From Chiloscyllium plagiosum (taxonomy: Eukaryota), in contig NC_057753.1 in assembly GCF_004010195.1 (NCBI RefSeq), forward strand, positions 14,825,230 to 14,866,061: a stretch of 40,832 nucleotides of DNA, in the 5' to 3' direction. Every line of letters starts with the position of its first letter. Position 1 is the stretch's first letter. The notes beneath the pieces are model-generated. The model made no database searches. It was not told the DNA's origin and saw only the letters and a program-made list of their open reading frames with translations. Made by a program: the position numbers and the translations under genes. Of the stretch, positions 6,953-39,000 are shown in pieces.

Positions 6953-8125
6953 CCTGAGACCCGAAGAAGGGGCTGCGCAAACAGTGGTCCCATCTTGTGC
7001 TTAATACCACAAGCATTCAAATAAATTCCAGGGTAGGAGGCAGCCTGGGGAGGGGGGGGGTGTGGGTTACCCTCCTGTCCTTTTACCACATTACATTGGA
7101 GACTGGTCATTGCTGTCACAACCGATTTGTCTATGGGGCCTGAACCTTGTGGGTTCAGAGGAGAGAAAGGGGGCGATCCAATCTGTGAACAGTTAAAAGA
7201 TTAAGGGAGGGTCCTTGCTATCCAAAGTGAAATGGGGCGAATTTGCAATGTGGTCAAAACACAACAGGGGCGACGCTAAAAAAAAACTGCGATCGAGTTA
7301 CCTGAGAACGTTGGAGGGAATACAACAGCACTCTCTCGCCAAGTAATGTCAACGCAGGGACAGGGCTACTCAGGGGTCCGGATAATCAGTGAACTAGCAG
7401 ATGGTGTTCCATAAGAGGTATAGTTAGTAAGTTTGCAGATGACACCAAAATTGGAGGGTGTAGTGGACAGCGAAGTGGGTTACCTCAGATTACAACAGGA
7501 TCTGGACCAGACGGGCCAATGTGCTGAGAAGTGGCAGATGGAGTTTAATTTAGATAAATGTGAGGTGCTGCATTTTGGGAAAGCAAATCTTAGCAGGACT
7601 TATACACTTAATGGTGAGGAAGGTCCTGGGGAGTGTTGCTGAACAGAGACCTTGGAGTGCAGGTTCATAGCGTCTTCCTATCGGAAAGATGTTGTGAAAC
7701 TTGAAAGGGTTCAGAAAAGATTCACAAGGATGTTGCCAGGGTTGTAGGGTTTGAGCTACAGGAAGAGGCTGAACAGGCTGGGGCTGTTTTCCCTGGAGCG
7801 TCGGAGGCTGAGGGGCGACCTTTATAGAAGTTTGCAAAATTGAGGGGCATGGATAGGGGTAAATAGACAAAGTCTTTTCCCTCTGGTCGGGGAGTCCAGA
7901 GCTAGAGGTGCATAGGATTAGGGTGAGGGGGGGAGATATAAAAGAGACTTAAGGGGTAACTTTTTCACACAGAGGGTGGTATGTGTATGGACTGAGCTGC
8001 CAGAGGAAATGGTGGAGGCTGGTACAGTGACAACATTTAAAAGGCACCTGGATGGGGACATGAATAGGAAGGGTTTGGAGGGATATAGGCCGGGTGCTGG
8101 CAGGTGGGACTAGATTGGGTTGGGA

Positions 8126-10132
8126 ACAAAGAAATGGCAGAAGAATTGAATTGGTACTTCAGATCTGTGTTCACTGGGAAGACATAAGCAATCTCCCTGA
8201 GGTAACAGTGGCTGAAGGACCTGAACTGAAGGGAATTTATATTTGCCAGGATTAGTGTTGGAGAGACTGTTGGGTCTGAAGGTTGATAAGTCGGATGTTG
8301 GTTAGGACCACTGTTGGAATATCGCGTGCAATTCTGGTCTCCTTCCTATCGGAAAGATGTTGTGAAACTTGAAAGGGTTCACAAAAGATTCACAAGGATG
8401 TTGGAGGGTTTGAGCTACAGGAAGAGGCTGAACAGGCTGGGGCTGTTTTCCCTGGAGCGTCGGAGGCTGAGGGGCGACCTTTATAGTCCCCGGGACCTGA
8501 TGGTCTACATCCCAGGGTACTGAAGGAGGTGGCTCGGGGAAATCGTGGATGCGTTGGTGATTATTTTCCAGAGTTCGATAGATTTGGCATCTGTTCGTGC
8601 AGATTTGAGAGTGGCTAATGTACCACTTTTTAAGAAAGGTGGGAGAGAGAAAGCAGGAAATTATAGACCAGTTAGTGTGACCTCAGTGGTGGGAAAGATG
8701 CTGGAGTCTATTCTCAACACCCCCACCCCCTGTGCCTCCCACACACACACACGCACACACACACACTCTGTGCCACTCTCACACACACACACTCTGTGCC
8801 TCTCTCCCACACACACACACTCTGTGCCTCTCTCCCCCACGCACACACACACACTCTGTGCCTCTCTCTCTCACACACACAAACTCTGTGCCTCTCTCCC
8901 ACACACACACACACACTCTGTGGGAGAGAGGCACAGAGTGTGTGTGTGTGTGTGGGAGAGAGGCACAGAGTGTGTGTGTGTGTGTGTGTGTGAGAGGCAC
9001 AGATTGAGTGTGTGTGTGTGAGAGAGAGTGTGTGTGTGTGGGAGAGAGGCACAGAGTTTGTGTGTGGGAGAGAGGCACAGAGTGTGTGTGTGTGGGAGAG
9101 AGGCACATAGTGTGTGTGTGGGGGAGAGAGGCACAGTGTATGTGTATGTGTGTGGGAGAGAGGCACAGAGTGTGTGTGTGTGGGAGAGAGGCACAGAGTG
9201 TGCGTGTGTGTGATAGAGCCACAGAGTGTGTGTGTGTGAGAGGCACAGAGTGTGTGTGTGTGTGTGTGGGAGAGAGGCACAGTGTGTGTGTGTGGGAGAA
9301 AGGCACAGGGTGTGTGTGTGTGTGTGAGAGGCACAGAGTGTGTGTGTGTGGGAGAGTGAGGCACAGAGTGTGTGTGTGGGATAGAGGCACAGGGTGTGTG
9401 TGTGTGGGAGAGTGTGTGTATGTGTGTGTGTGTGTGTGTGGGAGAGAGACACAGAGTGTGTGTGTGTGAGAGAGAGAGGCACAGAGTGTGTGTGTGTGTG
9501 TGTGTGTGGGAGAGAGGCACAGAGTGTGTGTGTGGGAGAGAGCCACAGAGTGTGTATGTGTGTGGGAGAGAAGCACAGAGTGTGTGTGTTTGTGTGTGGG
9601 AGAGAGGCACAGAGTGTTTGTGTGAGTGTGTGTTTGGGAGAGAGGCACAGAGTGTGTGTCGAGGTCAATTCCTGGAATGGCGGGACTACCTTACGCTGAA
9701 AGACTGGAGCGACTGGGCTTGTATACCCTTGAGTTTAGAAGACTGAGAGGGGATCTGATTGAGACATATAAGATTATGAAAGGATTGGACATGCTGGCAA
9801 CAGGAAACATGTTTCCACTGATGGGTGAGTGCCGACGCAGAGGACACAGCTTAAAAATACGGGGTAGACCATTTAGGACAGAGCTGAGGAGAAACGTCTT
9901 CACCCAGAGAGTGGTGGGTGTGTGGAATGCTCTGTCCCAGAGGGCAGTGGAGGCCCAGTCTCTGGATTTGTTTAAGAAAGAGTTGGATAGAGCTCTGAAG
10001 GATTGTGGAATCGAGGGTTATGGAGATAAGGCAGGAACAGGATACTGATTAAGGATGATCAGCCATGATCATATTGAATGGTGGTGCAGGCTCGATGGGC
10101 AGAATGGCCTACTCCTGCACCTATTGTCTACT
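8126..10132 (+). mobile_element. Inner CR1 LINE of a different subfamily, itself interrupted by a CR1 fragment (8293-8488) and a minisatellite
   Basis: Encodes KVDKS|PGPDGLHPRVLK, FKKGGREKAGNYRPVS and the C-terminal LERLGLYTLEFRRLRGDLIETYKIM. The 3' end is ...AGAATGGCCTACTCCTGCACCTATTGTCTA. Confidence 0.8.
8716..9659. repeat. Compound minisatellite of (CA)n + CTCTGTGCCTCTCTCC units, with an orientation switch at about 8920
   Basis: Directly visible: C/A-rich units at 8716-8920, then reverse-complement GGGAGAGAGGCACAGA(GT)n units at 8921-9659. Confidence 0.95.
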
Positions 10133-12393: not shown

Positions 12394-13754
12394 CGCCTTT
12401 TGCAGTATGCTTTTGGAGTGCACTCGATCTTGCGTGCGCACTTGCCCGTCTCCCCCTTTTTATTCCCTCCGTCCATCTGAGGGTCCTGGAGGGGTTTCGT
12501 CCAAACCTCGGCCGGTTGCGTTGCAGAGGCCGGGCTGGGAGGAGCAGGAGGCCCCCCAGCCCCTCACGGCCGGTCTCCACGTCCCTGATCTCTCCGCGCA
12601 TTCTTCCCCTCGACCCCCCCCCCCCCCCTCCCCCCCAAACCTGGGGTCACCTTGTGGGGTGGTCGCTGGAACTCTCCCTTCAGCCAGGGAATTGGGCAGC
12701 GACGCAGAGGTGGCTCGGGGTGAGTCTCTCCTTGCGGAGACTGGGGTTGGGGGGGGGGGGGGGGTGCAGGGTGGGCCCACAGTAGCTCTGGCTGAGGAAC
12801 ACTCGTGCTTGGAGGTAGCGGGAGTGCTGAGGGTCGTTAAAGGCGTCGTGGTGGGTGCCTGAGGGTCTGCACGTGTCCGTCCCCCCCAAGGCCTCACCGC
12901 CCTCTGCCTCATTTTGAGCGTTGGCCTCCGATTACGCCAGGAACGATTCTGTGCGCCAAGCCACCTCTTGCGTGTCGGCCTGCGTTTGTCCCCGTCCTGA
13001 TCGCTCTCATCGTACCCTGTCGCGGTTCACTTTGTAAATTGGTGCTCTTCATTAACCCACCCCACCTCGCTGCAGCTCTGGTCTGTTGTAACTGCTTTGC
13101 CTTAACTCCCTACCATTCGCCCCCTCCCCCGTCCAGTGTAATACCGCAGAGTGGGAGTGCCCCGAAGTTTAGTTCCTCTGGTGTTTACCGAGTTCACCAC
13201 TCCCGGTTAGAGTCCAAGGAACGGGCTGACTCGCTGCCTGAAGGTGGATTTGGATTTGTTTGGATCCCATCCTGCAGTTGCCTCTGGATGCAATGAGGAA
13301 CGGAGTGGGGAGGGGAGTGCTGGCGAAGGGGGTTGATAAAACGCACACGTCACTTCTCCTTTGGGAAACACGGGCCGTCAGAGAGCACACCTTCCTTTCC
13401 AGCTGTTTGTCCCTCTCCGTTTAAAAAGCGGGCATCACAAAACCGACACGAGCCGCCGGTGAGAGTAGGAGGTACTCGGCGTTTCCAGCGCACATCCAAA
13501 GCGCCCTGATCCCCAATGTTCTTTCTTTGCTGTGCGCCGCTGTTTCTGTGGCGTGGGCGTGGGGCTCTCGAGACGCACGCAGAAGTTGGAAAGGCTCAAG
13601 AGGGTCAGCCTGGGTGGGGACGTCGAAAGTGGTTAGCAGGTCAGACTCGAGCGCCCGTCGCTCGCGCAGAGCCTGCGCAGCCTCTGTTCTCAGATGAAGG
13701 GTCCCTCGACCCATTCCTCCAAAGGGAGATTGGGCAGGAGAGATCTGCAGGCAG

Positions 13755-13848
13755 AAGTGCGGATGCTGGAGATCAGGGCGGCAGTCAGGCAGCATCCGAG
13801 GAGCAGGAGAATCGAGGTTTCGGGCAATGGCCCTCCGTCGGGAATCTC
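13755..13848 (-). mobile_element. Degenerate Penelope-like terminal-repeat fragment with decayed hammerhead motif
   Basis: Minus strand ATTCCCGACGGAGGGCCATTGCCCGAAACCTCGATTCTCCTGCTCCTCGGATGCTGCCTGAC aligns to the intact copies at 19226, 19535 and 35570. Confidence 0.65.
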
Positions 13849-13899
13849 TGCCTGTCAGGAGTTGAGGAAAGGGAGGTGCAACGTTCCAGACGTGTGCAC

Positions 13900-18349: not shown

Positions 18350-18570
<221 letters not shown>

Positions 18571-19070: not shown

Positions 19071-19225
19071 TGTGGGTTTAGGGTACACGTCTGTTTAGAA
19101 CATCAGGGAAAGTGTTGGGGGGGAGAGAGAGGGTTCGCGGCGAGAGGGTCAGTCATTTGGAGACATTGCTGAAAATGTGTTGCTGGAGAAGCGCAGCAGG
19201 TCAGGCAGCATCCAGGGAACAGGAG

Positions 19226-19261
19226 AATCGACGTTTCGGGCATAACCCCTTCTTCAGGAAT
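19226..19261 (-). ncRNA. Minimal type I hammerhead ribozyme motif (Penelope type)
   Basis: AUUC-CUGAAGA-A-GGG(GUUAUG)CCC-GAAACGUC-GAUU: intact core, palindromic helix III (ACGU), GUC cleavage triplet, very short helix I. Confidence 0.7.
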
Positions 19262-19534
19262 GAGCTCTGTTTGAGAATGTGGCTGAAGAGCTTCTGTGCA
19301 GAGGAGATGACCTGGGGGGTGCAGTGAGAGAGGGACTCACTGAAATCTTTGTAGAGGGAGGAAGAGAGCTTCTTCAAGCCATGCATCCTTGCAAGAGGAT
19401 TCGCAGTAGGTTGAAATCTTTGAGGAGAAAGTGAGGACTGCAGATGCTGGAGATCAGAGCTGAAAATGTGTTGCTGGAAAAGCGCAGCAGGTCAGGCAGC
19501 ATCCAAGGAACAGGAGAATCGACGTTTCGGGCTC

Positions 19535-19570
19535 ATTCCTGAAGAAGGGCTTATGGCCGAAACGTCGATT
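19535..19570 (+). ncRNA. Minimal hammerhead ribozyme motif, stem II with one mismatch
   Basis: AUUC-CUGAAGA-A-GGGC(UUAU)GGCC-GAAACGUC-GAUU; core nucleotides are intact. Confidence 0.6.
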
Positions 19571-19865
19571 CTCCTGCTCCCTGGATGCTGCCTGACCTGC
19601 TGCGCTTTTCCAGCAACACATTTTTCAGCTCTGATCTCCAGCATCTGCAGACCTCACTTTCTCCATTTGGAGACATTGCCTGGTTCAATCACTGCAAACA
19701 AAAGACCCGATCGCTGCTGGAAACAGTCCGACTTTCCGGATCTCCGGTGTTTGGATAATCGAGGTTTCACCGCGATCGGCGTCATCTCAGCTTGGACGAC
19801 GGAGTTAAGCGCGCCAAGGTGAAGTGGATTTGGAGGTTAAAATATCACACAACACCGAAAGCTAG

Positions 19866-20735
19866 TCACAGAGTCACACAGATGGACAGCACAGAAACAG
19901 ACCCTTCGGTCCAACCCGTCCATTCCGACCCAGATATCCCAAACCCAATCTAGTCCCACCTGCCAGCACCCGGCCCATATCCCTCCAAACCCTTCCTATT
20001 CATATACCCATCCAAATGCCTCTTAAATGTTGCAATTGTACCAGCCTCCACCACGTCCTCTGGCAGCTCATTCCATACACGTACCACCCTCTGGGTGAAA
20101 ACGTTGTCCCTTGCCCCTCTCACCCTAAACCTACGCCCCTCTAGTTCTGGACTCCCCCGTCCTCAGGGAAAAGACTTTGCCTATTTACCATACCCATGCC
20201 CCCTCATGATTTTATAAACCTCTATAAGGTCACCCCTCAGCCTCCGACACTCCAGGGAAACCAGCCCCAGCCTGTCCAGCCTCTCCCTGTAGCTCAAACC
20301 CTCCAACATCCTTGTAAATCTTTCCTGAACCCTTTCACAACATCTTTCCGATAGGAAGGAGACCAGAATTGCCAATATTCCACTAACCAATGTCCTGTAC
20401 AGCTGCAACATGACCTCCCAACTCCTGTACTCAATACTCTGACCAATAAAGGAAAGCNNNNNNNNNNNNNNNNNNNNNNNNNNNNNNNNNNNNNNNNNNN
20501 NNNNNNNNNNNNNNNNNNNNNNNNNNNNNNNCACTCCAAGGTCTCTTTGTTCAGCCACACTCCCCAGGACCTTACCATTAAGTGTATAAGTCCTGCTAAG
20601 ATTTGCTTTCCCAAAATGCAGCACCTCACATTTATCTGAATTAAACTCCATCTGCCACTTCTCAGCCCATTGGCCCGTCTGGTCCAGACCCTGTTGTAAT
20701 CGGAGGGAACCCTCTTCGCTGTCCGCTACACCCTC
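19866..20735 (-). mobile_element. 5'-truncated CR1 LINE with 3' end (N gap 20458-20531)
   Basis: ORF 20181..20813 contains WAEKWQMEFNSDKCEVLHFGKAN and RLRGDLIEVYKIM. A CR1 tail ends at about 19866. Confidence 0.9.
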
Positions 20736-22121: not shown

Positions 22122-22376
22122 GTGAGGGATGCTCCCTTTTCTACTCCGTTTAATGTCTCTATGCAAACCTTTTGCCCTCCTGTGGGTGGGGTTTCATCTG
22201 TGGGAGACGTTAGAACGTGTCGTTACCCACACCCGCTCCCCCCTAACCCCCCCCCCCCCCTCCAGCTTTCATTTATATATAGCCTGGCACGTCCCAAGTG
22301 GCAGAAGGGAGCATCTGGGGAGCAGCACTGCACTCCCTGGAGCGTGGCGGTCAGATATCCGCCCTCATGTCCTGTC

Positions 22377-23588
22377 CGCATCCCAATTTGTGCACAGTCT
22401 GATCCCCCAGTGTCACACCGCACCCAATTTGTGCACAGTCTGATCACCCAGTGACACACCGCACCCAATTTGTGCACAGTCAGATCCCCCAGTGTCACAC
22501 CGCACCCAATTTGTGCACAGTCTGATCCCCCAGTGACACACCGCACCCAATTTGTGCACAGTCAGATCCCCCAGTGTCACACAGCACCCAATTTGTGCAC
22601 AGTCTGATCCCCCAGTGACACAGTGCACCCAATTTGTGCACAGACAGATCCCCCAGTGACACACCGCACCCAATTTTTGCACAGTCAGATCCCCCAGTGA
22701 CACACCGCACCCAATTTGTGCACAGTCTGATCTCCCAGTGACACACCGCACCCAATTTGTGCATAGACAGATCCCCCAGTGACACACAGCACCCAATCTG
22801 TGCACAGACAGATCCCCCATTGTCACACAGCACCCAATTTGTGCACAGACAGATCCCCCAGTGACACACAGCACCCAATCTGTGCACAGACAGATCCCCC
22901 AGTGACACACAGCACCCAATTTGTGCACAGACAGATCCCCCAGTGTCACACCGCACCCAATTTGTGCACAGACAGATCCCCCATTGTCACACCGCACCCA
23001 ATTTGTGCACAGACAGATCCCCCAGTGTCACACCGCACCCAATTTGTGCACAGTCAGATCCCCCAGTGACACACCGCACCCAATTTGTGCACAGTCTCAT
23101 CCCCCAGTGACACACCGCACCCAATTTGTGCACAGTCTGATCCCCCAGTGTCACACCGCACTCAATTTGTGCACAGTCAGATCCCCCAGTGTCACACCGC
23201 ACCCAATTTGTGCACAGACAGATCCCCCAGTGTCACACCGCACCCAGTTTGTGCACAGTCTGATCCCCCAGTGTCACACCGCACCCAATTTGTGCACAGT
23301 CTGATCCCCCAGTGACACACCTTTCACCCAATTTGTGCACAGTCTCATCCCCCAGTGACACACCGCACCCAGTTTGTGCACAGTCAGATCCCCCAGTGTC
23401 AAACTGCACCCAATTTGTGCACAGTCTGATCCCCCAGTGACACAGTGCACCCAATTTGTGCACAGACAGATCCCCCAGTGTCACACCGCACCCAATTTGT
23501 GCACAGTCTGATCCCCCAGTGTCACACCGCACCCAATTTGTGCACAGTGTGATCCCCCAGTGTCACACCGCACCCAATTTGTGCACAC
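22377..23588. repeat. 41-bp minisatellite, about 29-30 copies, in PARP2 intron 1
   Basis: Unit CACCCAATTTGTGCACAGTCTGATCCCCCAGTGTCACACCG with a few recurrent variant positions. Confidence 0.97.
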
Positions 23589-24349: not shown

Positions 24350-24733
24350 GAATCACCCCTCAACCAACAGCACGGAAACAGACCCTTCGGTCCAACCCGT
24401 CCACGCTGACCCTGATATCCCCAACCCAATCCAGTCCCATTTGCCAGCACTTGGCCCATGTCCCTCCAAACCCTTCCTGTTCATGTCCCCATCCAGATGC
24501 CTTTTCAATGCTGTCATTGTGCCAGCCGCCACCACTTCCTCTGGCAGCTCATTCCACACATGCACCACCCTCTGGGTGCCCCTTAGGTCCCTTTTATATC
24601 TTTCCCCTCTCAACATAAACCTATGCCCCTCTAGTTTTGGACTCCCCCACCCCAGGGAAAAGACCTTGTCTATTTACCCCTATCCATCTGATCACCCCTT
24701 AACCTCCAACGCTCCAGGGAAAACAGCTCCAGG
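24350..24733 (-). mobile_element. CR1 3' end
   Basis: Encodes RVVHVWNELPEEVVAAGT...KRHLD; the tail matches the other CR1 copies. Confidence 0.85.
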
Positions 24734-26185
24734 GTGTAAGTTTGCTCGCTGAGCTGTAGGTTTGATATCCAGGCGTTTCATTACCTGGCTAGGTAACATC
24801 ATCAGTGGCGACCTCCAAGTGAAGCGAAGAGGTTGTCTCCTGCTTTCTATTTATATCTTTCTCCTGGATGGGAGTCCTGGGGTTTGTGGTGGTGTCATTT
24901 CCTGTTCGTTTTCTGAGGGGTTGACAGATCTATGTGTTTGTTTATGGCGTTGTGGTTGGAGTGCCAGGCCTCTAGGAATTCTCTGGCATGTCTTTGCTTA
25001 GCCTGTCCCAGGATAGATGTGTTGTCCCAGTCGAAATGGTGGTTTCTTTCATCCGTGTGTAGGGCTACGAGGGAGAGAGGGTCGTGCCTTTTTGTGGCTA
25101 GCTGGTGTTAGTGTATCCTGGTGGCTAGCTTTCTTCCTGTTTGTCCTACATAGTGTTTGTGGCAAATCCTTGCATGGAATTTTGTAGACGACGTTGGTTT
25201 TGCCCATGGGTTGTACTGGGTCTTTTAGGTTTGTTAGTTTTTGTTTGAGAGTGTTGGTGGGTTTGTGTGCTACTAGGATTCTGAGGGGTCTCAGTAGTCT
25301 GGCTGTCTGTTCTGAGACTTCTTTGATGTATGGTAAGGTGGTTAGGGTTTCTGGCTGTGTTTGGTCTGCTTGTCGTGGTTTGTACTTGAGGAATCTGCGC
25401 ACTGTATTTTTTGAGTATCCGTTCTTCTTGAATACGTCGTATAGGTGGTTCTCCTCTGTTTTCCGAAGTTCGTCTGTGCTGCAGTGTGTGGTGGCTCGTT
25501 GGAATAGCGTTCTGATACAGCTTTGTTTGTGTGTGTTGGGATGGTTGCTGGTGTAGTTAAGTCTTTGGTCAGTGTTAGTCGGTTTTCTGTATACGCAGGT
25601 TTGTAGTTCTCCCTTGTCCTTTCTTTCGACTGTGACGTCCAGGAATGCGAGTTTGTTGTCGGTTTCTTCCTCCCTGGTGAACTCTATGCCTGTGAGGGTG
25701 TTGTCGATGATGTTAAATATCTCTTCTCTCTTGTTTCGTTTTGTGATGACAAAGGTGTCATCTACGTCGCGGACCCAGATGTTTGGTTTGATGGTTGGTA
25801 GGGCTGTTTGTTCTAGCCTTTGCATTACCGCTTCTGCTGTGAGTCCTGATAGCGGAGATCCCATGGGTGTGCCGTTGTTTTGTTTGTAGACTATGTTGTT
25901 GAAGGTGAAGTGGGTGGTGAGGCACAGGTCCACTGGCTTCATGATGTTTTCGTTGGTAATGTGATTGATGGTGGTTGGGGGGGGTGTGTGTGTGTGCGTG
26001 TGCGTGTGCGTGTGCGCGTGTGTTCCCTCCGCCGGGCCGACGTTGCAGGGGGTGAACGGTGCTGTTACGTCGCATGGGACCATCGCTCCGTCGTCCTCTA
26101 TCTTGGTGTGTTTGATGGTGTTTAGGAGGTCCTGGGTGGTGTGGATGGAGTGCTGCGACTCTTCTACTGGGTACCTCAGTCATGC
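24734..26185 (-). mobile_element. 5'-truncated Penelope-like element (RT + GIY-YIG endonuclease), defective
   Basis: ORF 25049..26083 contains YKQNNGTPMGSPLSG, WVRDVDDTFV (YVDD mutated), LAFLDV, VYRKPT and NVVYKIPCKD, then a frameshift into YVGQTGR. The terminal repeat carries a hammerhead motif at 24769-24808 (CUGAUGA...GAAACGCC, triplet mutated). Confidence 0.92.
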
Positions 26186-27966: not shown

Positions 27967-28127
27967 GTACGATCCTGTCCTGACAGTGTTCAATGGGCAG
28001 ACACTCCGGGGAACTTTAAATTCATCTTGTTGTTAAAGCGTAGAGACAGCTTTGCATTCAGTTCAAAACAGTACAGAGAGTTTTACTTTCCATTGGGAAA
28101 AACAGAGGGAGCTTTACCTTCTCTGTA

Positions 28128-31100
28128 AAAGGGTAGAGGGAGCTTTACTTTCAGATTAAAGGGTAGAGAGAGCTTCACTTTCAGATTAAAGAGTAGAGGG
28201 AGCTTTACTTTCAGATTAAAGGGTAGAGGAGGCTTTACTTTCAGATTAAAGGGTAAAGGGAGCTTCACTTTCAGATTAAAGGGTAGAGGGAGCTTTACTT
28301 TCAGACTAAAGGGTAGAGGGAGCTTTAGTTTTAGATTGAAAGGGTAGAGAGAGCTTTACTTTCAGATTAAAGGGTAGAGGGAGCTTTACTTTCAGATTAA
28401 AGGGTAAAGGGAGCATCACTTTCAGTCTAAAGGGTAAAGGGAGCTTTACTTTCAGATTAAAGGGTAGAGGAAGCTTCACTTTCAGATTAAAGGGTAGAGG
28501 GAGCTTTACTTTCAGATTAAAGGGCAGAGGGAGCTTTACTTTCAGATTGAAGGGTAGAGGAAGCTTCACTTTCAGATTAAAGGGTAGAGGGAGCTTTACT
28601 TTCAGATTAAAGAGTAAAGGGAGCTTTACTTTCAGATTAAAGGGTAGAGGGAGCTTTACTTTCAGATTAAAGGGTAGAGAGAGCTTTACTTTCAGATTAA
28701 AGGGTAGAGAGAGCTTTACTTTTAGATTAAAGGGTAGAGAGAGCTTTACTTTCAGATTAAAGGGTAGAGAGAGCTTTACTTTCAGATTAAAGGGTAGAGA
28801 GAGCTTTACTTTCAGATTAAAGGGTAGAGAGAGCTTTACTTTCAGATTAAAGGGTAGAGAGAGCTTTACTTTCAGATTAAAGGGTAGAGAGAGCTTTACT
28901 TTCAGATTAAAGGGTAGAGAGAGCTTTACTTTCAGATTAAAGGGTAGAGAGAGCTTTACTTTCAGATTAAAGGGTAGAGAGAGCTTTACTTTCAGATTAA
29001 AGGGTAGAGAGAGCTTTACTTTCAGATTAAAGGGTAGAGAGAGCTTTACTTTCAGATTAAAGGGTAGAGAGAGCTTTACTTTCAGATTAAAGGGTAGAGA
29101 GAGCTTTACTTTCAGATTAAAGGGTAGAGAGAGCTTTACTTTCAGATTAAAGGGTAGAGAGAGCTTTACTTTCAGATTAAAGGGTAGAGAGAGCTTTACT
29201 TTCAGATTAAAGGGTAGAGAGAGCTTTACTTTCAGATTAAAGGGTAGAGAGAGCTTTACTTTCAGATTAAAGGGTAGAGAGAGCTTTACTTTCAGATTAA
29301 AGGGTAGAGAGAGCTTTACTTTCAGATTAAAGGGTAGAGAGAGCTTTACTTTCAGATTAAAGGGTAGAGAGAGCTTTACTTTCAGATTAAAGGGTAGAGA
29401 GAGCTTTACTTTCAGATTAAAGGGTAGAGAGAGCTTTACTTTCAGATTAAAGGGTAGAGAGAGCTTTACTTTCAGATTAAAGGGTAGAGAGAGCTTTACT
29501 TTCAGATTAAAGGGTAGAGAGAGCTTTACTTTCAGATTAAAGGGTAGAGAGAGCTTTACTTTCAGATTAAAGGGTAGAGAGAGCTTTACTTTCAGATTAA
29601 AGGGTAGAGAGAGCTTTACTTTCAGATTAAAGGGTAGAGAGAGCTTTACTTTCAGATTAAAGGGTAGAGAGAGCTTTACTTTCAGATTAAAGGGTAGAGA
29701 GAGCTTTACTTTCAGATTAAAGGGTAGAGAGAGCTTTACTTTCAGATTAAAGGGTAGAGAGAGCTTTACTTTCAGATTAAAGGGTAGAGAGAGCTTTACT
29801 TTCAGATTAAAGGGTAGAGAGAGCTTTACTTTCAGATTAAAGGGTAGAGAGAGCTTTACTTTCAGATTAAAGGGTAGAGAGAGCTTTACTTTCAGATTAA
29901 AGGGTAGAGAGAGCTTTACTTTCAGATTAAAGGGTAGAGAGAGCTTTACTTTCAGATTAAAGGGTAGAGAGAGCTTTACTTTCAGATTAAAGGGTAGAGA
30001 GAGCTTTACTTTCAGATTAAAGGGTAGAGAGAGCTTTACTTTCAGATTAAAGGGTAGAGAGAGCTTTACTTTCAGATTAAAGGGTAGAGAGAGCTTTACT
30101 TTCAGATTAAAGGGTAGAGAGAGCTTTACTTTCAGATTAAAGGGTAGAGAGAGCTTTACTTTCAGATTAAAGGGTAGAGAGAGCTTTACTTTCAGATTAA
30201 AGGGTAGAGAGAGCTTTACTTTCAGATTAAAGGGTAGAGAGAGCTTTACTTTCAGATTAAAGGGTAGAGAGAGCTTTACTTTCAGATTAAAGGGTAGAGA
30301 GAGCTTTACTTTCAGATTAAAGGGTAGAGAGAGCTTTACTTTCAGATTAAAGGGTAGAGAGAGCTTTACTTTCAGATTAAAGGGTAGAGAGAGCTTTACT
30401 TTCAGATTAAAGGGTAGAGAGAGCTTTACTTTCAGATTAAAGGGTAGAGAGAGCTTTACTTTCAGATTAAAGGGTAGAGAGAGCTTTACTTTCAGATTAA
30501 AGGGTAGAGAGAGCTTTACTTTCAGATTAAAGGGTAGAGAGAGCTTTACTTTCAGATTAAAGGGTAGAGAGAGCTTTACTTTCAGATTAAAGGGTAGAGA
30601 GAGCTTTACTTTCAGATTAAAGGGTAGAGAGAGCTTTACTTTCAGATTAAAGGGTAGAGAGAGCTTTACTTTCAGATTAAAGGGTAGAGAGAGCTTTACT
30701 TTCAGATTAAAGGGTAGAGAGAGCTTTACTTTCAGATTAAAGGGTAGAGAGAGCTTTACTTTCAGATTAAAGGGTAGAGAGAGCTTTACTTTCAGATTAA
30801 AGGGTAGAGAGAGCTTTACTTTCAGATTAAAGGGTAGAGAGAGCTTTACTTTCAGATTAAAGGGTAGAGAGAGCTTTACTTTCAGATTAAAGGGTAGAGA
30901 GAGCTTTACTTTCAGATTAAAGGGTAGAGAGAGCTTTACTTTCAGATTAAAGGGTAGAGAGAGCTTTACTTTCAGATTAAAGGGTAGAGAGAGCTTTACT
31001 TTCAGATTAAAGGGTAGAGAGAGCTTTACTTTCAGATTAAAGGGTAGAGAGAGCTTTACTTTCAGATTAAAGGGTAGAGAGAGCTTTACTTTCAGATTAA

Positions 31101-33259
31101 AGGGTAGAGAGAGCTTTACTTTCAGATTAAAGGGTAGAGAGAGCTTTACTTTCAGATTAAAGGGTAGAGAGAGCTTTACTTTCAGATTAAAGGGTAGAGA
31201 GAGCTTTACTTTCAGATTAAAGGGTAGAGAGAGCTTTACTTTCAGATTAAAGGGTAGAGAGAGCTTTACTTTCAGATTAAAGGGTAGAGAGAGCTTTACT
31301 TTCAGATTAAAGGGTAGAGAGAGCTTTACTTTCAGATTAAAGGGTAGAGAGAGCTTTACTTTCAGATTAAAGGGTAGAGAGAGCTTTACTTTCAGATTAA
31401 AGGGTAGAGAGAGCTTTACTTTCAGATTAAAGGGTAGAGAGAGCTTTACTTTCAGATTAAAGGGTAGAGAGAGCTTTACTTTCAGATTAAAGGGTAGAGA
31501 GAGCTTTACTTTCAGATTAAAGGGTAGAGAGAGCTTTACTTTCAGATTAAAGGGTAGAGAGAGCTTTACTTTCAGATTAAAGGGTAGAGAGAGCTTTACT
31601 TTCAGATTAAAGGGTAGAGAGAGCTTTACTTTCAGATTAAAGGGTAGAGAGAGCTTTACTTTCAGATTAAAGGGTAGAGAGAGCTTTACTTTCAGATTAA
31701 AGGGTAGAGAGAGCTTTACTTTCAGATTAAAGGGTAGAGAGAGCTTTACTTTCAGATTAAAGGGTAGAGAGAGCTTTACTTTCAGATTAAAGGGTAGAGA
31801 GAGCTTTACTTTCAGATTAAAGGGTAGAGAGAGCTTTACTTTCAGATTAAAGGGTAGAGAGAGCTTTACTTTCAGATTAAAGGGTAGAGAGAGCTTTACT
31901 TTCAGATTAAAGGGTAGAGAGAGCTTTACTTTCAGATTAAAGGGTAGAGAGAGCTTTACTTTCAGATTAAAGGGTAGAGAGAGCTTTACTTTCAGATTAA
32001 AGGGTAGAGAGAGCTTTACTTTCAGATTAAAGGGTAGAGAGAGCTTTACTTTCAGATTAAAGGGTAGAGAGAGCTTTACTTTCAGATTAAAGGGTAGAGA
32101 GAGCTTTACTTTCAGATTAAAGGGTAGAGAGAGCTTTACTTTCAGATTAAAGGGTAGAGAGAGCTTTACTTTCAGATTAAAGGGTAGAGAGAGCTTTACT
32201 TTCAGATTAAAGGGTAGAGAGAGCTTTACTTTCAGATTAAAGGGTAGAGAGAGCTTTACTTTCAGATTAAAGGGTAGAGAGAGCTTTACTTTCAGATTAA
32301 AGGGTAGAGAGAGCTTTACTTTCAGATTAAAGGGTAGAGAGAGCTTTACTTTCAGATTAAAGGGTAGAGAGAGCTTTACTTTCAGATTAAAGGGTAGAGA
32401 GAGCTTTACTTTCAGATTAAAGGGTAGAGAGAGCTTTACTTTCAGATTAAAGGGTAGAGAGAGCTTTACTTTCAGATTAAAGGGTAGAGAGAGCTTTACT
32501 TTCAGATTAAAGGGTAGAGAGAGCTTTACTTTCAGATTAAAGGGTAGAGAGAGCTTTACTTTCAGATTAAAGGGTAGAGAGAGCTTTACTTTCAGATTAA
32601 AGGGTAGAGAGAGCTTTACTTTCAGATTAAAGGGTAGAGAGAGCTTTACTTTCAGATTAAAGGGTAGAGAGAGCTTTACTTTCAGATTAAAGGGTAGAGA
32701 GAGCTTTACTTTCAGATTAAAGGGTAGAGAGAGCTTTACTTTCAGATTAAAGGGTAGAGAGAGCTTTACTTTCAGATTAAAGGGTAGAGAGAGCTTTACT
32801 TTCAGATTAAAGGGTAGAGAGAGCTTTACTTTCAGATTAAAGGGTAGAGAGAGCTTTACTTTCAGATTAAAGGGTAGAGAGAGCTTTACTTTCAGATTAA
32901 AGGGTAGAGAGAGCTTTACTTTCAGATTAAAGGGTAGAGAGAGCTTTACTTTCAGATTAAAGGGTAGAGAGAGCTTTACTTTCAGATTAAAGGGTAGAGA
33001 GAGCTTTACTTTCAGATTAAAGGGTAGAGAGAGCTTTACTTTCAGATTAAAGGGTAGAGAGAGCTTTACTTTCAGATTAAAGGGTAGAGAGAGCTTTACT
33101 TTCAGATTAAAGGGTAGAGAGAGCTTTACTTTCAGATTAAAGGGTAGAGAGAGCTTTACTTTCAGATTAAAGGGTAGAGAGAGCTTTACTTTCAGATTAA
33201 AGGGTAGAGAGAGCTTTACTTTCAGATTAAAGGGTAGAGAGAGCTTTACTTTCAGATTA
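28128..33259. repeat. 30-bp tandem array, about 171 units
   Basis: Unit GAGCTTTACTTTCAGATTAAAGGGTAGAGA. Variant units run to about 28723; roughly 151 apparently identical copies follow. Confidence 0.98.
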
Positions 33260-33602: not shown

Positions 33603-34345
33603 TTAGAGATGTACAGCACGGGAAACAGACCCTTCAGCCCAACCCGGCTGTGCCGACCCAGATATCCCTAACCTAATCCAGTCCCCGTTTGCCAGCCCCT
33701 GCCCCGTATCCCTCCAAACCCTTCCTATCCCTGTCCCCATCCACCTTTTCAATGCTGTCATTGTACTAGCCTCCACCCTTCCTCTGGCAGCTCATTCCAC
33801 ACACGCACCACCCTCTGGGTGAGAAAGTTACCCCTCGGGTCCCTTTCCCCTCTCACCCTAAACCTACGCCCCTCTAGTTCTGGACTTCATCCCCCACCCC
33901 AGGGAAAAGACCTCGGCTATTCACTGTACCATGTCCCTCATGATTTTATAAACCTCTAAAAGGTCACCCCTTAGTCTCCGACACTCCAGGGAAAACAGCC
34001 CCAGCCTGTTCAGCCTCTCCCTGTAGCTCAGATCCTCCAACCCTGGTAACATTCATGTAAATCTTTTCTGAGCCCTTTTGAGTTTCACAACATCCGTCCT
34101 ATAGCAGGGAGACCAGAACTGAATGCAGTGGCCCTAACCAATGTCCAGTACAGCCACAACCTGACCTCCCAACTCCTGTACTCAATACNNNNNNNNNNNN
34201 NNNNNNNNNNNNNNNNNNNNNNNNNNNNNNNNNNNNNNNNNNNNNNNNNNNNNNNNNNNNNNNNNNNNNNNNNNNNTTTATCTGAATTAAACTCCATCTG
34301 CCACTTCTCAGCCCATTGGCCCATCTGGTCCAGACCCTGTTGTAC
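33603..34345 (-). mobile_element. 5'-truncated CR1 with 3' end (N gap 34189-34276)
   Basis: Encodes WAEKWQMEFNSDK and IEYRSWEV; a CR1 tail ends at about 33605. Confidence 0.88.
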
Positions 34346-35279: not shown

Positions 35280-35280
35280 G

Positions 35281-35701
35281 CCTCATCTTCCGCTTCGGGA
35301 CCCTTCAACCCCAGGGCATCAATGTGGACTTCACCAGTTTCCTCATTTCCCCTCCCCCCACATAACCTCAGTTCCAACCTTCCAGCTCAGCACTTGTCCT
35401 CATGACCTGTCCTACCTGCCTATCTCCCTTCCCACCTATCCGCTCTGCCCTCCTCTCTGACCTATCACCTCCATCCCCACCCCCATCCACCTAGTGTACA
35501 CTTTGCTACCTTCTCCCCCACCCACCCCCTCTTCCATTTATCTCTCCACCCCGGAGGCTCCCAGCCTCTATTCCTGATGAAGGGCTCCTGCCCGAAACGT
35601 CGATTTTCTTGCTCCCTGGATGCTGCCTGACCTGCTGTGCTTTTCCAGCGCCACTCTTGACCTTGACTCCGATCTCCAGCATCTGCAGTCCTCACTTTTT
35701 C
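35281..35701 (+). mobile_element. 3' end of a Penelope-like element (Neptune-like ORF terminus plus terminal repeat)
   Basis: LIFRFGTLQPQGINVDF* style terminus, typical of the end of PLE GIY-YIG domains. It is followed by a C-rich UTR, a hammerhead motif and the tail shared with 19557-19664. Confidence 0.8.
35570..35605 (+). ncRNA. Minimal hammerhead ribozyme motif, intact core
   Basis: AUUC-CUGAUGA-A-GGGC(UCCU)GCCC-GAAACGUC-GAUU; stem II is perfectly paired. Confidence 0.75.
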
Positions 35702-36719
35702 CCCCCTTCCGATCAACTCGGGCCAGCTCCTCCCTCGCCTCTTTGCAGCTACACTTACTCAATCGCAACGTCTGAATCCAGCTTTTCCCTCTCAGACCGC
35801 AGGGTGAATTCTTACACACAATGCTCACTGCCTCCTAGCGGCTCCTTCATCTTAAGCTTCCTAATCAAGTCTGCCGCGTCCCCAGAAACCAGGATTGTCT
35901 GTTCCCCAGTGGGCTCTACCACAAACTGCTCCGATAAACCATCTGCTAGGTGTTTTACAAATCCCTTTTCCTGGAGATCCACTACCAACCTGATTCTGAA
36001 CGCTTCCAGGATTATTGTAATAGTGTCTTCTCTCTCTCCTGATCTATTTTCTTCCCGACTGCCTCGAGAGGGCCTGTACACAAGACGTGTAGCCTTGGCT
36101 GCTTAGTTCCTAGCCCTGCTTCCGTGATACCCACAGCGTTGTGTCTGCTGACTTCGATCTGCGCTGTCAGTCCACTTACCTCATTCCGTGCACAACAGCT
36201 TCAGTCCTGCGTTGACTGACACGCTTCTCAGAGTGGCCCCCTTATCTGCTGTTAGATTCCTAAACTTACTTAGCGAGTTTTGAGAAGATTTGTAGCTCAG
36301 GTTGACATTCTGGATGTGGGTTTGCTCGCTGAGCTGGAAGGTTCATTTCCAGACGTTTTGTCACCGCACTAGGTAACATCTTCATTTTACACGGTATTTT
36401 GTAATCTTTGGCATCACTAGACGAAACTAATTAGAGGAAACCTTCAAGACCATCAGTAATACCCTTACTGGCATAAAATTCACTGAAGAGGAGGAAAACA
36501 ACAACAAAGTGCCATTCCTAGATGTCACAGTAGAGTGAACAGCCAATGGGGAACTTCAAACTAGCGTCTACAGAAAAACAACACATACGGACCAAATACA
36601 GAACTACAGAAGCAATCATCCCAACACCCACAAACTAAGCTGCATCAGAACGTTATTTCAACGAGCCAACACACAGAGGAACTATGCAGAGCAGAGGAAA
36701 ATCACCTATACCTATATAA

Positions 36720-37643: not shown

Positions 37644-38231
37644 CCAGGAACCCCAGCCACTCTCCCCGACATCAAAGACATCTCGGGAATGACTGTCAGA
37701 CTACTCGGACCCCTTGGCATCGTGGTAGCCCACAGACCCACCAAAACAGCAGCTAATGAAGTTGAAAGGCCCTATACAGACAACAAGCAAAACTAATGTC
37801 ATTTATAAAATACTGTGCAAGGACTGTAACAAACACTACATTGGACAAACAGGCAGAAAACTAGCCACCAGGATACATGAACATCATCTAGCCACAAAAC
37901 GACATGACCCTCTCTCACTAGTATCCTCACGTATGGATGAGGAAGGACACCACTTCGATTGGGACAACACATCCATCTTAGGACAAGCCAAACAGAGACA
38001 CGCACGAGAATTCCTAGAAGCATGGCATTCCAACCAAACCTCTATCGACAAACCCATCGAGTTAGACCCCATCTACCACCCACCTGAGAAAACGAGTTAG
38101 ACCCCATCTACCACCCACCTGAGAAAAAGGAACAGGAAGTGACTTCCCCACAGGAAACGACACCACCAACCCAAAGAGACCCAAACATATAAACAGAAAG
38201 CAGAATTATCAGCAGTGCTTCGCCCGGAGGC

Positions 38232-38271
38232 CCACTGAAGATGTTACCTAGTAGGGTGACGAAACGTCTGG
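38232..38271 (+). ncRNA. Minimal hammerhead ribozyme motif, intact core
   Basis: CCA-CUGAAGA-U-GUUACC(UAGUAG)GGUGAC-GAAACGUC-UGG: helix I CCA/UGG, 6-bp stem II, palindromic ACGU helix III, GUC triplet. It lies in the terminal repeat of a PLE. Confidence 0.8.
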
Positions 38272-38424: not shown

Positions 38425-39000
38425 TTCCGTGCAATTCTGGTCTCCTTCCTATTGGAAAGATGTTGTGAAACTTGAAAGGGTTCAGAAAAGATTTGCAGGG
38501 ATGTTGCCAGAGTTGGAGGATTTGAGCTACAGGGAGAGGCTGAACAGTCTGGGGCTGTTTTTCCTGGAGCCTCAGAGGCTGAGGGGTGACCTTAAGAGAG
38601 GTTTATAAAATCACGAGGGGGCATGAGTAGGGTAAACAGACAAGGTCTTTTCCCTGGGGTCGGGGGAGTCCAGAACTATAGGGGCATAGGTTTAGGGTGA
38701 GAGCCTCGGAGGCTGAGGGGTGACCTTATAGAGGTTTATAAAATCATGAGGGGTAATGGATAGGATAAATAGACAAAGTCTCTTCCCTGGGGTTGGGGAG
38801 TCCAGAACTAGAGGGGCGTAGGCTTAAGGCGAGAGGGGAAAGATATAAAAGAGACCTCAGGGGCAACGTTTCACACAGAGGGTGATACGTGTGTGGAATG
38901 AGCTGCCAGAGGAAGTGGTGGAGGCTGGTACAATGACAGCATTTAAAAGGGTGGATGGGGACAGGGATAGGAAGGGATTGGAGGGATATGGGCCGGGCGC
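38425..39000 (+). mobile_element. CR1 3' fragment with an internal tandem duplication of about 135 bp
   Basis: Encodes VQFWSPSYWKDVVKLERVQKRF...RLRGDL. The segment starting CCTC(A/G)GAGGCTGAGGGGTGACC occurs at 38570 and 38704. Confidence 0.88.

Follow-up and report, generated by a model that had tools for sequence, protein, structure and literature searches.

Genomic context of the insert

The window (the whole analysed stretch of 40,832 nucleotides from Chiloscyllium plagiosum) contains an RRM exon similar to RALY and hnRNP C (Table 1) and an insert of 494 bp at 19170-19663, which probably lies in the intron following this exon, with a block of 500 N between the two. The insert is bounded by a target site duplication (TSD), the two copies of which are identical in 16 of 16 bp. 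This 16-mer occurs at these two places and nowhere else in the window, and in 1000 dinucleotide simulations run on the 1.2-kb region no repeated word reached 16 bases, the best value being 15, obtained once. The perfect target duplication of the preliminary description is therefore confirmed. The edges of the insert are nevertheless soft by one or two bases, because positions 19168-19169 and 19664 also match the repeat from which the insert is built.

The target seems itself to lie within another repeat, as the bin 19149-19161 on the TSD has a depth of 2974 in the sequencing run X9. We take the right flank (19680-19775) to end like a Tigger-type terminal repeat. Elsewhere in the window, an ordinary 3' end of the same family as the insert (copy D) is 85% identical to copy C, with an approximate upstream boundary, and the peptide preceding it presumably resembles the C-terminus of a Penelope-like element (PLE) endonuclease. 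At 13740-13860(-) lies an old copy of the insert's repeat in which both the hammerhead core and the cut site have been altered by mutation. A decayed, PLE-like reverse transcriptase (RT) frame at 25049-26179(-) (weak RVT_1 match, E 7e-5) lies upstream of a hammerhead motif belonging to a second family, at 24775-24805(-), and a GIY-YIG frame at 37729-38100(+), which scores above the Pfam cut-off, is followed by a motif of this second family at 38235-38265(+). Further repeats are a 30-bp satellite at 28104-33259 (~172 copies, 98% matches, long open frames on both strands), two minisatellites (22376-23587, 41 bp x 29.5; 8754-9624, 28 bp x 24) and a dispersed repeat with LINE-like frames at 19880-20300, presumably of the CR1 type, which matches 7748-8124, 24367-24678, 33607-34030 and 38521-39000 with ~83-90% identity.

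Layout of the insert

Read 5' to 3' on the minus strand, the insert consists of an inverted repeat with a tail (copy C), a repeat that is cut in stem II of its hammerhead (copy B), a 37-nt leader, 40 codons of an open reading frame (ORF) and a repeat without a tail (copy A). The tail is thus present at one end only, comprising 35 nt at the right end of the insert that are absent from the left. The direct repeat measures 74 nt with 97% identity and a spacing of 291, and the inverted arms measure 94, 68 and 43 nt with 96-98% identity. The motif GAAACGUC has its last base, the cut base, at 19230 and 19521 on the minus strand and at 19566 on the plus strand. Both the 291-nt unit between the two minus-strand cut sites and the inverted third copy with its own plus-strand hammerhead, as originally proposed, are borne out by these data. 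The 291-nt unit, which carries the leader and the 40 ORF codons fused to the hammerhead end, has a GC content of 50.2% and folds no better than its shuffles (z -0.13); for the whole insert, the comparison with shuffles gave a z of -19.6.

Table 1. Features of the insert and related features of the window (positions are those of the window; strand as +, - or none)
Feature	Position	Strand	Remarks
RALY / hnRNP C-like RRM exon	18401..18568	+	phmmer E 4e-26 to RALY, 2e-24 to hnRNP C
TSD, left copy, 16 bp	19154..19169	.	identical to 19664-19679
Terminal pseudo-LTR copy A: element 3' end without the 35-nt tail; starts 7 bases upstream of the hammerhead core	19170..19264	-	family reads depart from the reference at 19264
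Hammerhead A, minimal type I; core CUGAAGA at 19257-19251; one additional A ahead of stem II; helix III loopless	19226..19261	-	predicted cut after 19230
Fusion point, ORF codon 41 / hammerhead end	19265..19266	-	base 19265 matches neither parent
First 40 codons of the family ORF, in frame from the ATG at 19386	19267..19386	-	95% identity to P0001
37-nt leader, tail end to ATG	19387..19423	-	
Copy B, upstream pseudo-LTR; tail at 19424-19458; truncated within stem II	19424..19532	-	GAAACGUC kept (19528-19521), no catalytic core
Inverted pseudo-LTR copy C with tail 19630-19664	19532..19663	+	same starting family base as copy A
Minimal hammerhead C	19535..19570	+	predicted cut after 19566; private G.G mismatch in stem II
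TSD, right copy	19664..19679	.	identical to 19154-19169
Copy D: ordinary 3' end of the same family, hammerhead 35570-35605	35280..35702	+	intact stem II; ~290 nt of further upstream sequence

Retained ORF start

The insert had been described as non-coding, which is refuted by the ATG and 39 further codons on its minus strand; these match the beginning of P0001, a gene model of Hemiscyllium ocellatum, with 95% identity. Past the fusion, P0001 continues with T-R-Y and the window with S-S-F, showing that the ORF is left at codon 41, and the reading frame ends after 62 codons, 40 of which are ORF-derived. There is no intact RT-endonuclease ORF in this copy, in agreement with the earlier statement that the insert lacks an RT.

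Searches with the ORF start using phmmer yielded eight matches. Six of these (P0001, P0003, P0005-8) are carpet-shark proteins from Hemiscyllium, Chiloscyllium, Rhincodon and Stegostoma that all align over the same N-terminus; the other two (P0002 and P0004), a plant LRR protein and an unnamed repeat protein, are chance matches to repetitive sequence. With all six carpet-shark proteins as queries, tblastn found a match in the window only at this insert. The relatives are N-terminal gene models only and had no hit in Pfam, and protein searches, Pfam and NCBIfam revealed neither longer relatives nor a full-length parent protein. In an atlas comparison, residues 190-319 of P0006 scored 0.97 to clusters in which 28-51% of the members carry DUF8422, a domain with no tie to PLEs in that comparison, and residues 1-165 of P0001 gave nothing informative. 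P0006 has a putative DKG-like motif at its end. The ORF may be that of a PLE encoding RT and GIY-YIG endonuclease.

Hammerhead motifs

Our assignment of the hammerheads is based on motif features and on the description of minimal hammerheads in PMC4209133, and not on Rfam, where no match reached the gathering score and no hammerhead family was found at E<=10; the 16 Rfam matches obtained at E<=10 are hairpin-driven miRNA and chance matches. Copies A and C share with the minimal type the CUGANGA core, an extra base before stem II, the G10.1-C11.1 pair, a palindromic helix III (15.2-16.2) without a loop and a short helix I (PMC4209133). Stem II has 4 bp in the shark family as against 7-8 bp in schistosomes; the available text of PMC4209133 names no shark family.

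Each of the two whole hammerheads has one G.G mismatch in stem II. In copy A it is located at 19246, where 97% of the family depth in X1 has a pairing base instead. The pairing probability of stem II is 0.27 in A and 0.07 in C, compared to 1.0 in copy D, and neither A nor C in isolation is predicted to fold into a hammerhead. The full hammerhead claimed for 19226-19261(-) therefore stands as a motif, with the qualification that its stem II carries a mismatch private to this copy. Copy B retains the cut strand and has no CUGANGA core; it ends inside stem II, which bears out the proposal that the upstream minus-strand hammerhead was cut by the inversion. Its cut site lies in a hairpin of ~107 bp and is fully paired in the predicted read-through transcript (mean paired 1.00). 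In a transcript starting inside the element, stem I of A is predicted to pair with the cut strand of B with a probability of 0.0.

Minimal hammerheads have been reported in pairs on opposite strands, 100-700 bp apart, with low activity that is confined to dimers (PMC4209133). By analogy with this model, the core of A could in principle cut B as a dimeric hammerhead, but the cut site of A itself would still need a partner in trans. In a preprint on retrozymes, only one of nine predicted dimeric hammerheads cut at all (10.64898/2026.07.22.740005). Since B lacks a core, its site is buried in a hairpin and stem II is mismatched in both A and C, release from this copy of a small circular RNA or of the ~291-nt monomer that the preliminary description envisaged for a tandem precursor appears unlikely; there is one complete hammerhead on the strand, with a damaged stem II, and the fusion shows no excess depth (see below). 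We infer that the hammerheads are passengers of the pseudo-LTR in this insert.

The family in shark reads

Positions 19071-19458 were compared, at 90% likeness, with the contigs of X1, X2 (organism A) and X9 (organism B) and with the raw RNA reads of X21, four of the 24 listed sequencing runs; depths given here are summed over contigs and do not equal copy numbers. The hammerhead end of the family is hugely abundant in these reads, with a summed depth of ~1e7 on the repeat (X1, X2). The corresponding value is 1e5 to 5e5 for the leader and ORF start, which the repeat exceeds 33-49 fold, and 7-26 for the first flank bin. In X1, 1204 loose-end records mark the main family end, at 19422-19424. One contig of organism B, 80 nt long, runs from 19387 to 19458, showing that repeat and leader are joined in the family and not only at this insert.

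At the fusion, the usual upstream sequence of the family departs from the reference at 19264 (66, 89 and 169 contigs; 107 RNA reads), and the loose ends there start with a base other than that of the window. For this reason we place the fusion between 19264 and 19266, with one base from neither parent. None of the 24 pieces listed bridges 19265 (there are 197,212 others, and 796 loose ends besides those listed). The ratio of the depth in the fusion bin to that two bins inward was 0.11-0.14 in the three DNA runs, against 0.10-0.11 (~0.105) at a plain repeat edge. We thus observe no sign of an amplified fusion, in what is a weak test. Metagenome, prokaryote-genome and viral contigs had no match to the fusion or repeat patterns, and the viral contigs none to the protein alignment; shark DNA is not expected in these collections, which makes the negative results uninformative.

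Similar fusions, with a fixed ribozyme side, a varying other side and including tandems of the repeat only, seem to exist: at least seven joints (15 listed, 266 others) connect 19258-19261 to 19301, 19344, 19350, 19423 or 19424, the sequence between the two sides being not known. Head-to-tail joints of the repeat only (19260/19261 to 19423/19424) were found in organism A with 5-16 contigs per row listed, and were absent from the rows listed for organism B. For a search for retrozyme-like arrays, such units without leader or ORF in organism A are more promising than the present locus. A joint that goes back by 291 nt (19458 to 19168; 19, 36 and 60 contigs, 262 RNA reads) was considered as evidence for a circle and rejected, because the tail normally continues into the repeat in any copy.

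In X1 and X9, the depth at 19123-19148 is zero, so that these two runs may lack this locus, and no run is continuous from the left flank into the insert. In the RNA of X21 (~2 in 100 of the run, 2123 reads), the depth is ~2 at 19266-19278 compared to up to ~1300 on the repeat; X21 is a polyA single-cell library, which is blind to circles and cut ends, and no pile-up of ends was seen among those listed. We therefore give these RNA data no weight.

Differences between the repeat copies

Copies A, B and C differ at two sites, 19215 and 19219, where they read G/A, A/A and G/G, respectively. Both sites are polymorphic in the family, with 62% and 38% of the depth in X1 carrying the other allele. Over the 64 bases shared by the copies, two of the four differences fall at these sites, the rough post-hoc chance of which is 0.001. 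The three allele pairs fit several templates better than one circle, which is an unlikely source since a circle copied through more than one round would give identical copies A and B; they are also compatible with a master locus of unlike repeats that was copied whole, or with gene conversion. Further, copies A and C share their first family base, which lies 7 nt upstream of the core; this indicates that the fusion took place at a recurring stop and not at a random point.

The insert had also been called young, for which we find no support, as at least 4 of ~287 positions differ from more than 90% of the family in X1. At a mutation rate of 7e-10 per generation (PMC10587355), this divergence of 1.4% would imply an implausibly old insert, so that some of the differences probably stem from the source subfamily.

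Comparison with known elements

A typical Penelope insertion has an ORF between two pLTRs, an adjacent inverted pLTR, a 31-bp tail at one end and a 9-bp TSD (PMC3846280), and the same layout is given for the PLE class (PMC8557442). The insert shares with endonuclease-bearing PLE insertions (Arkhipova et al. 2013, PMC3846280; Craig et al. 2021, PMC8557442) the direct pLTRs, the inverted, 5'-truncated copy beside the upstream pLTR, a tail at one end only (30-40 bp in the published cases) and the TSD; together with the minimal hammerhead, these are five of the six features we tested, the sixth being a parent RT with endonuclease, and on this basis the insert is a PLE insertion. It differs in that its body is reduced to the 37-nt leader and 40 codons, that its TSD has 16 bp compared to 8-10 bp in the rotifer examples (PMC3846280) and that, unlike in these published insertions (PMC3846280, PMC8557442), the ATG is located 135 nt past the ribozyme cut, outside both repeat and tail.

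In PAc, the Poseidon element of Anolis (Frangieh et al. 2024, PMC11167929), the RT has two start sites separated by one tail length, which accounts for the occurrence of tailed and tail-less ends, as observed here, and insertion in vitro does not require cleavage by the hammerhead. Both the ribozyme and the start sites of PAc overlap its ORF, whereas here they are upstream of the ATG; the 40 retained codons are therefore not the equivalent of the PAc start region. The fusion, 121 nt into the ORF, lies numerically near the RT start of PAc at 111-118 (PMC11167929), which we regard as coincidence given the different spacing from ribozyme to ATG.

With non-LTR retrozymes (Cervera and de la Pena 2020, PMC7229834; Li, Clavereau and Pollet, 10.64898/2026.07.22.740005), the insert has in common the ~300-nt spacing of the cuts, a type I hammerhead, the PLE origin, the lack of an RT and a long TSD. 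The monomers of these elements are described as ~300 nt long and non-coding, with a GC content under 45-50%. In contrast, the insert comprises 1.3 units with one complete hammerhead on the strand, contains ORF codons, has a minimal instead of a canonical ribozyme and gives no indication of being amplified or of forming a circle. Judged by the requirement for two complete hammerheads or by the canonical ribozyme of the published description, it is not a non-LTR retrozyme.

Origin of the insert

Taken together, the insert is very probably a PLE insertion without a body, and the earlier view of a non-autonomous, TSD-flanked PLE derivative with minimal hammerheads is upheld by its layout and motifs. 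Its source was most likely the abundant carpet-shark Penelope-like element, of which it would be a single insertion, dead on arrival.

On balance, we consider it probable that the insert was built in one event, by template jumps of the RT during integration. The PLE endonuclease would have nicked the target. Reverse transcription would have begun 60-62 nt past the hammerhead cut, at the tail-less site, proceeded over ~95 nt to the usual family stop just upstream of the hammerhead core and then switched to another family RNA at codon 41, continuing back through the leader, the tail and repeat B. Yet another template would have contributed inverted copy C prior to the joining of the ends. We infer all of these steps, and likewise the template RNA. 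This route is favoured by the stop shared between A and C, by the fixed ribozyme side among the listed joints and by the three allele pairs, as well as by a layout equal to that of published PLE inserts and a fusion-bin depth near that of a plain edge. Against it, other letters may lie inside the listed joints.

A less likely, though still sizeable, possibility is that a full-length PLE with a standard inverted end lost its ORF body, later or already in the master, by an internal deletion of the microhomology type reaching from codon 41 to the 3' repeat. Such a case is on record in rotifers, where a Pen2 derivative with inverted pLTRs and a 10-bp TSD arose by microhomology-mediated internal deletion (PMC3846280), and both the in-frame ORF start, 95% identical to its relative, and the unlike alleles of A, B and C, which would be natural for a master locus, agree with this explanation. 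However, the breakpoint coincides with the first base of copy C and is close to the point at which the other listed fusions leave the repeat, neither of which a random deletion requires; further, one base at the joint fits neither parent.

The preliminary description favoured a retrozyme and set a one-off deletion or template switch against it. The latter is the better fit, though the junction may not be unique. We consider it improbable that the 291-nt unit is the monomer of a retrozyme family, whose tandem precursors elsewhere would be cut by dimeric hammerheads, circularised and reverse-transcribed through more than one round by a PLE RT, this locus being one copy of 1.3 units with an inverted end. 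The size does come near that of the ~300-nt monomers (PMC7229834), the unit retains the repeat, the tail and the whole core, and PLE-derived retrozymes have been reported, one of them in a cartilaginous fish, with a mean consensus of 363 bp (10.64898/2026.07.22.740005). The junction-bin depth of X2, slightly above the plain edge (0.14 vs 0.105), leaves room for a low-copy family, and the repeat-only head-to-tail joints of the family, each in 5-16 contigs among those listed, point in the same direction. Yet the two consecutive complete hammerheads that define such elements (10.64898/2026.07.22.740005) are absent, A and B differ at a common family polymorphism where copies of one circle would be identical, none of the 24 listed pieces bridges the fusion, and the mismatched stems II and the fully paired B site speak against cleavage. 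Slightly more doubtful still is a retrozyme caught at its birth: by fusing the ORF start to the hammerhead end, the template jump would have made a short, self-contained monomer that dimeric or trans-acting hammerheads turned, or still turn, into a circle and that spread through carpet sharks in few copies.

Two or three independent nested insertions, or an assembly error at the hairpin, that merely mimic one element are very improbable: the family is very abundant and no run crosses from the left flank into the insert to confirm the locus independently, but a single perfect 16-bp TSD bounds the whole with no inner TSD found, the three copies differ from one another and the layout is that of the published PLE pattern.

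Significance

The insert is a real, well-formed and ordinary PLE insertion in a PLE-rich genome. Searches of a limited literature collection listed no paper on this shark family. Were the fusion amplified and circularised after all, it would offer a direct view of a retrozyme arising from a PLE, and the birth of a retrozyme at this point would, if true, give a base-level route from one to the other; such a reading would not be new in kind, since PLE-derived retrozymes, including one from a cartilaginous fish, have already been reported (10.64898/2026.07.22.740005). The way in which PLEs assemble tandem and inverted inserts is not yet settled (PMC8557442, PMC11167929). In this respect the mechanistic value of the insert is modest: within one TSD it combines three copies of the repeat that carry unlike family alleles with a common stop just upstream of the ribozyme, which suggests that a single insertion drew on several templates.
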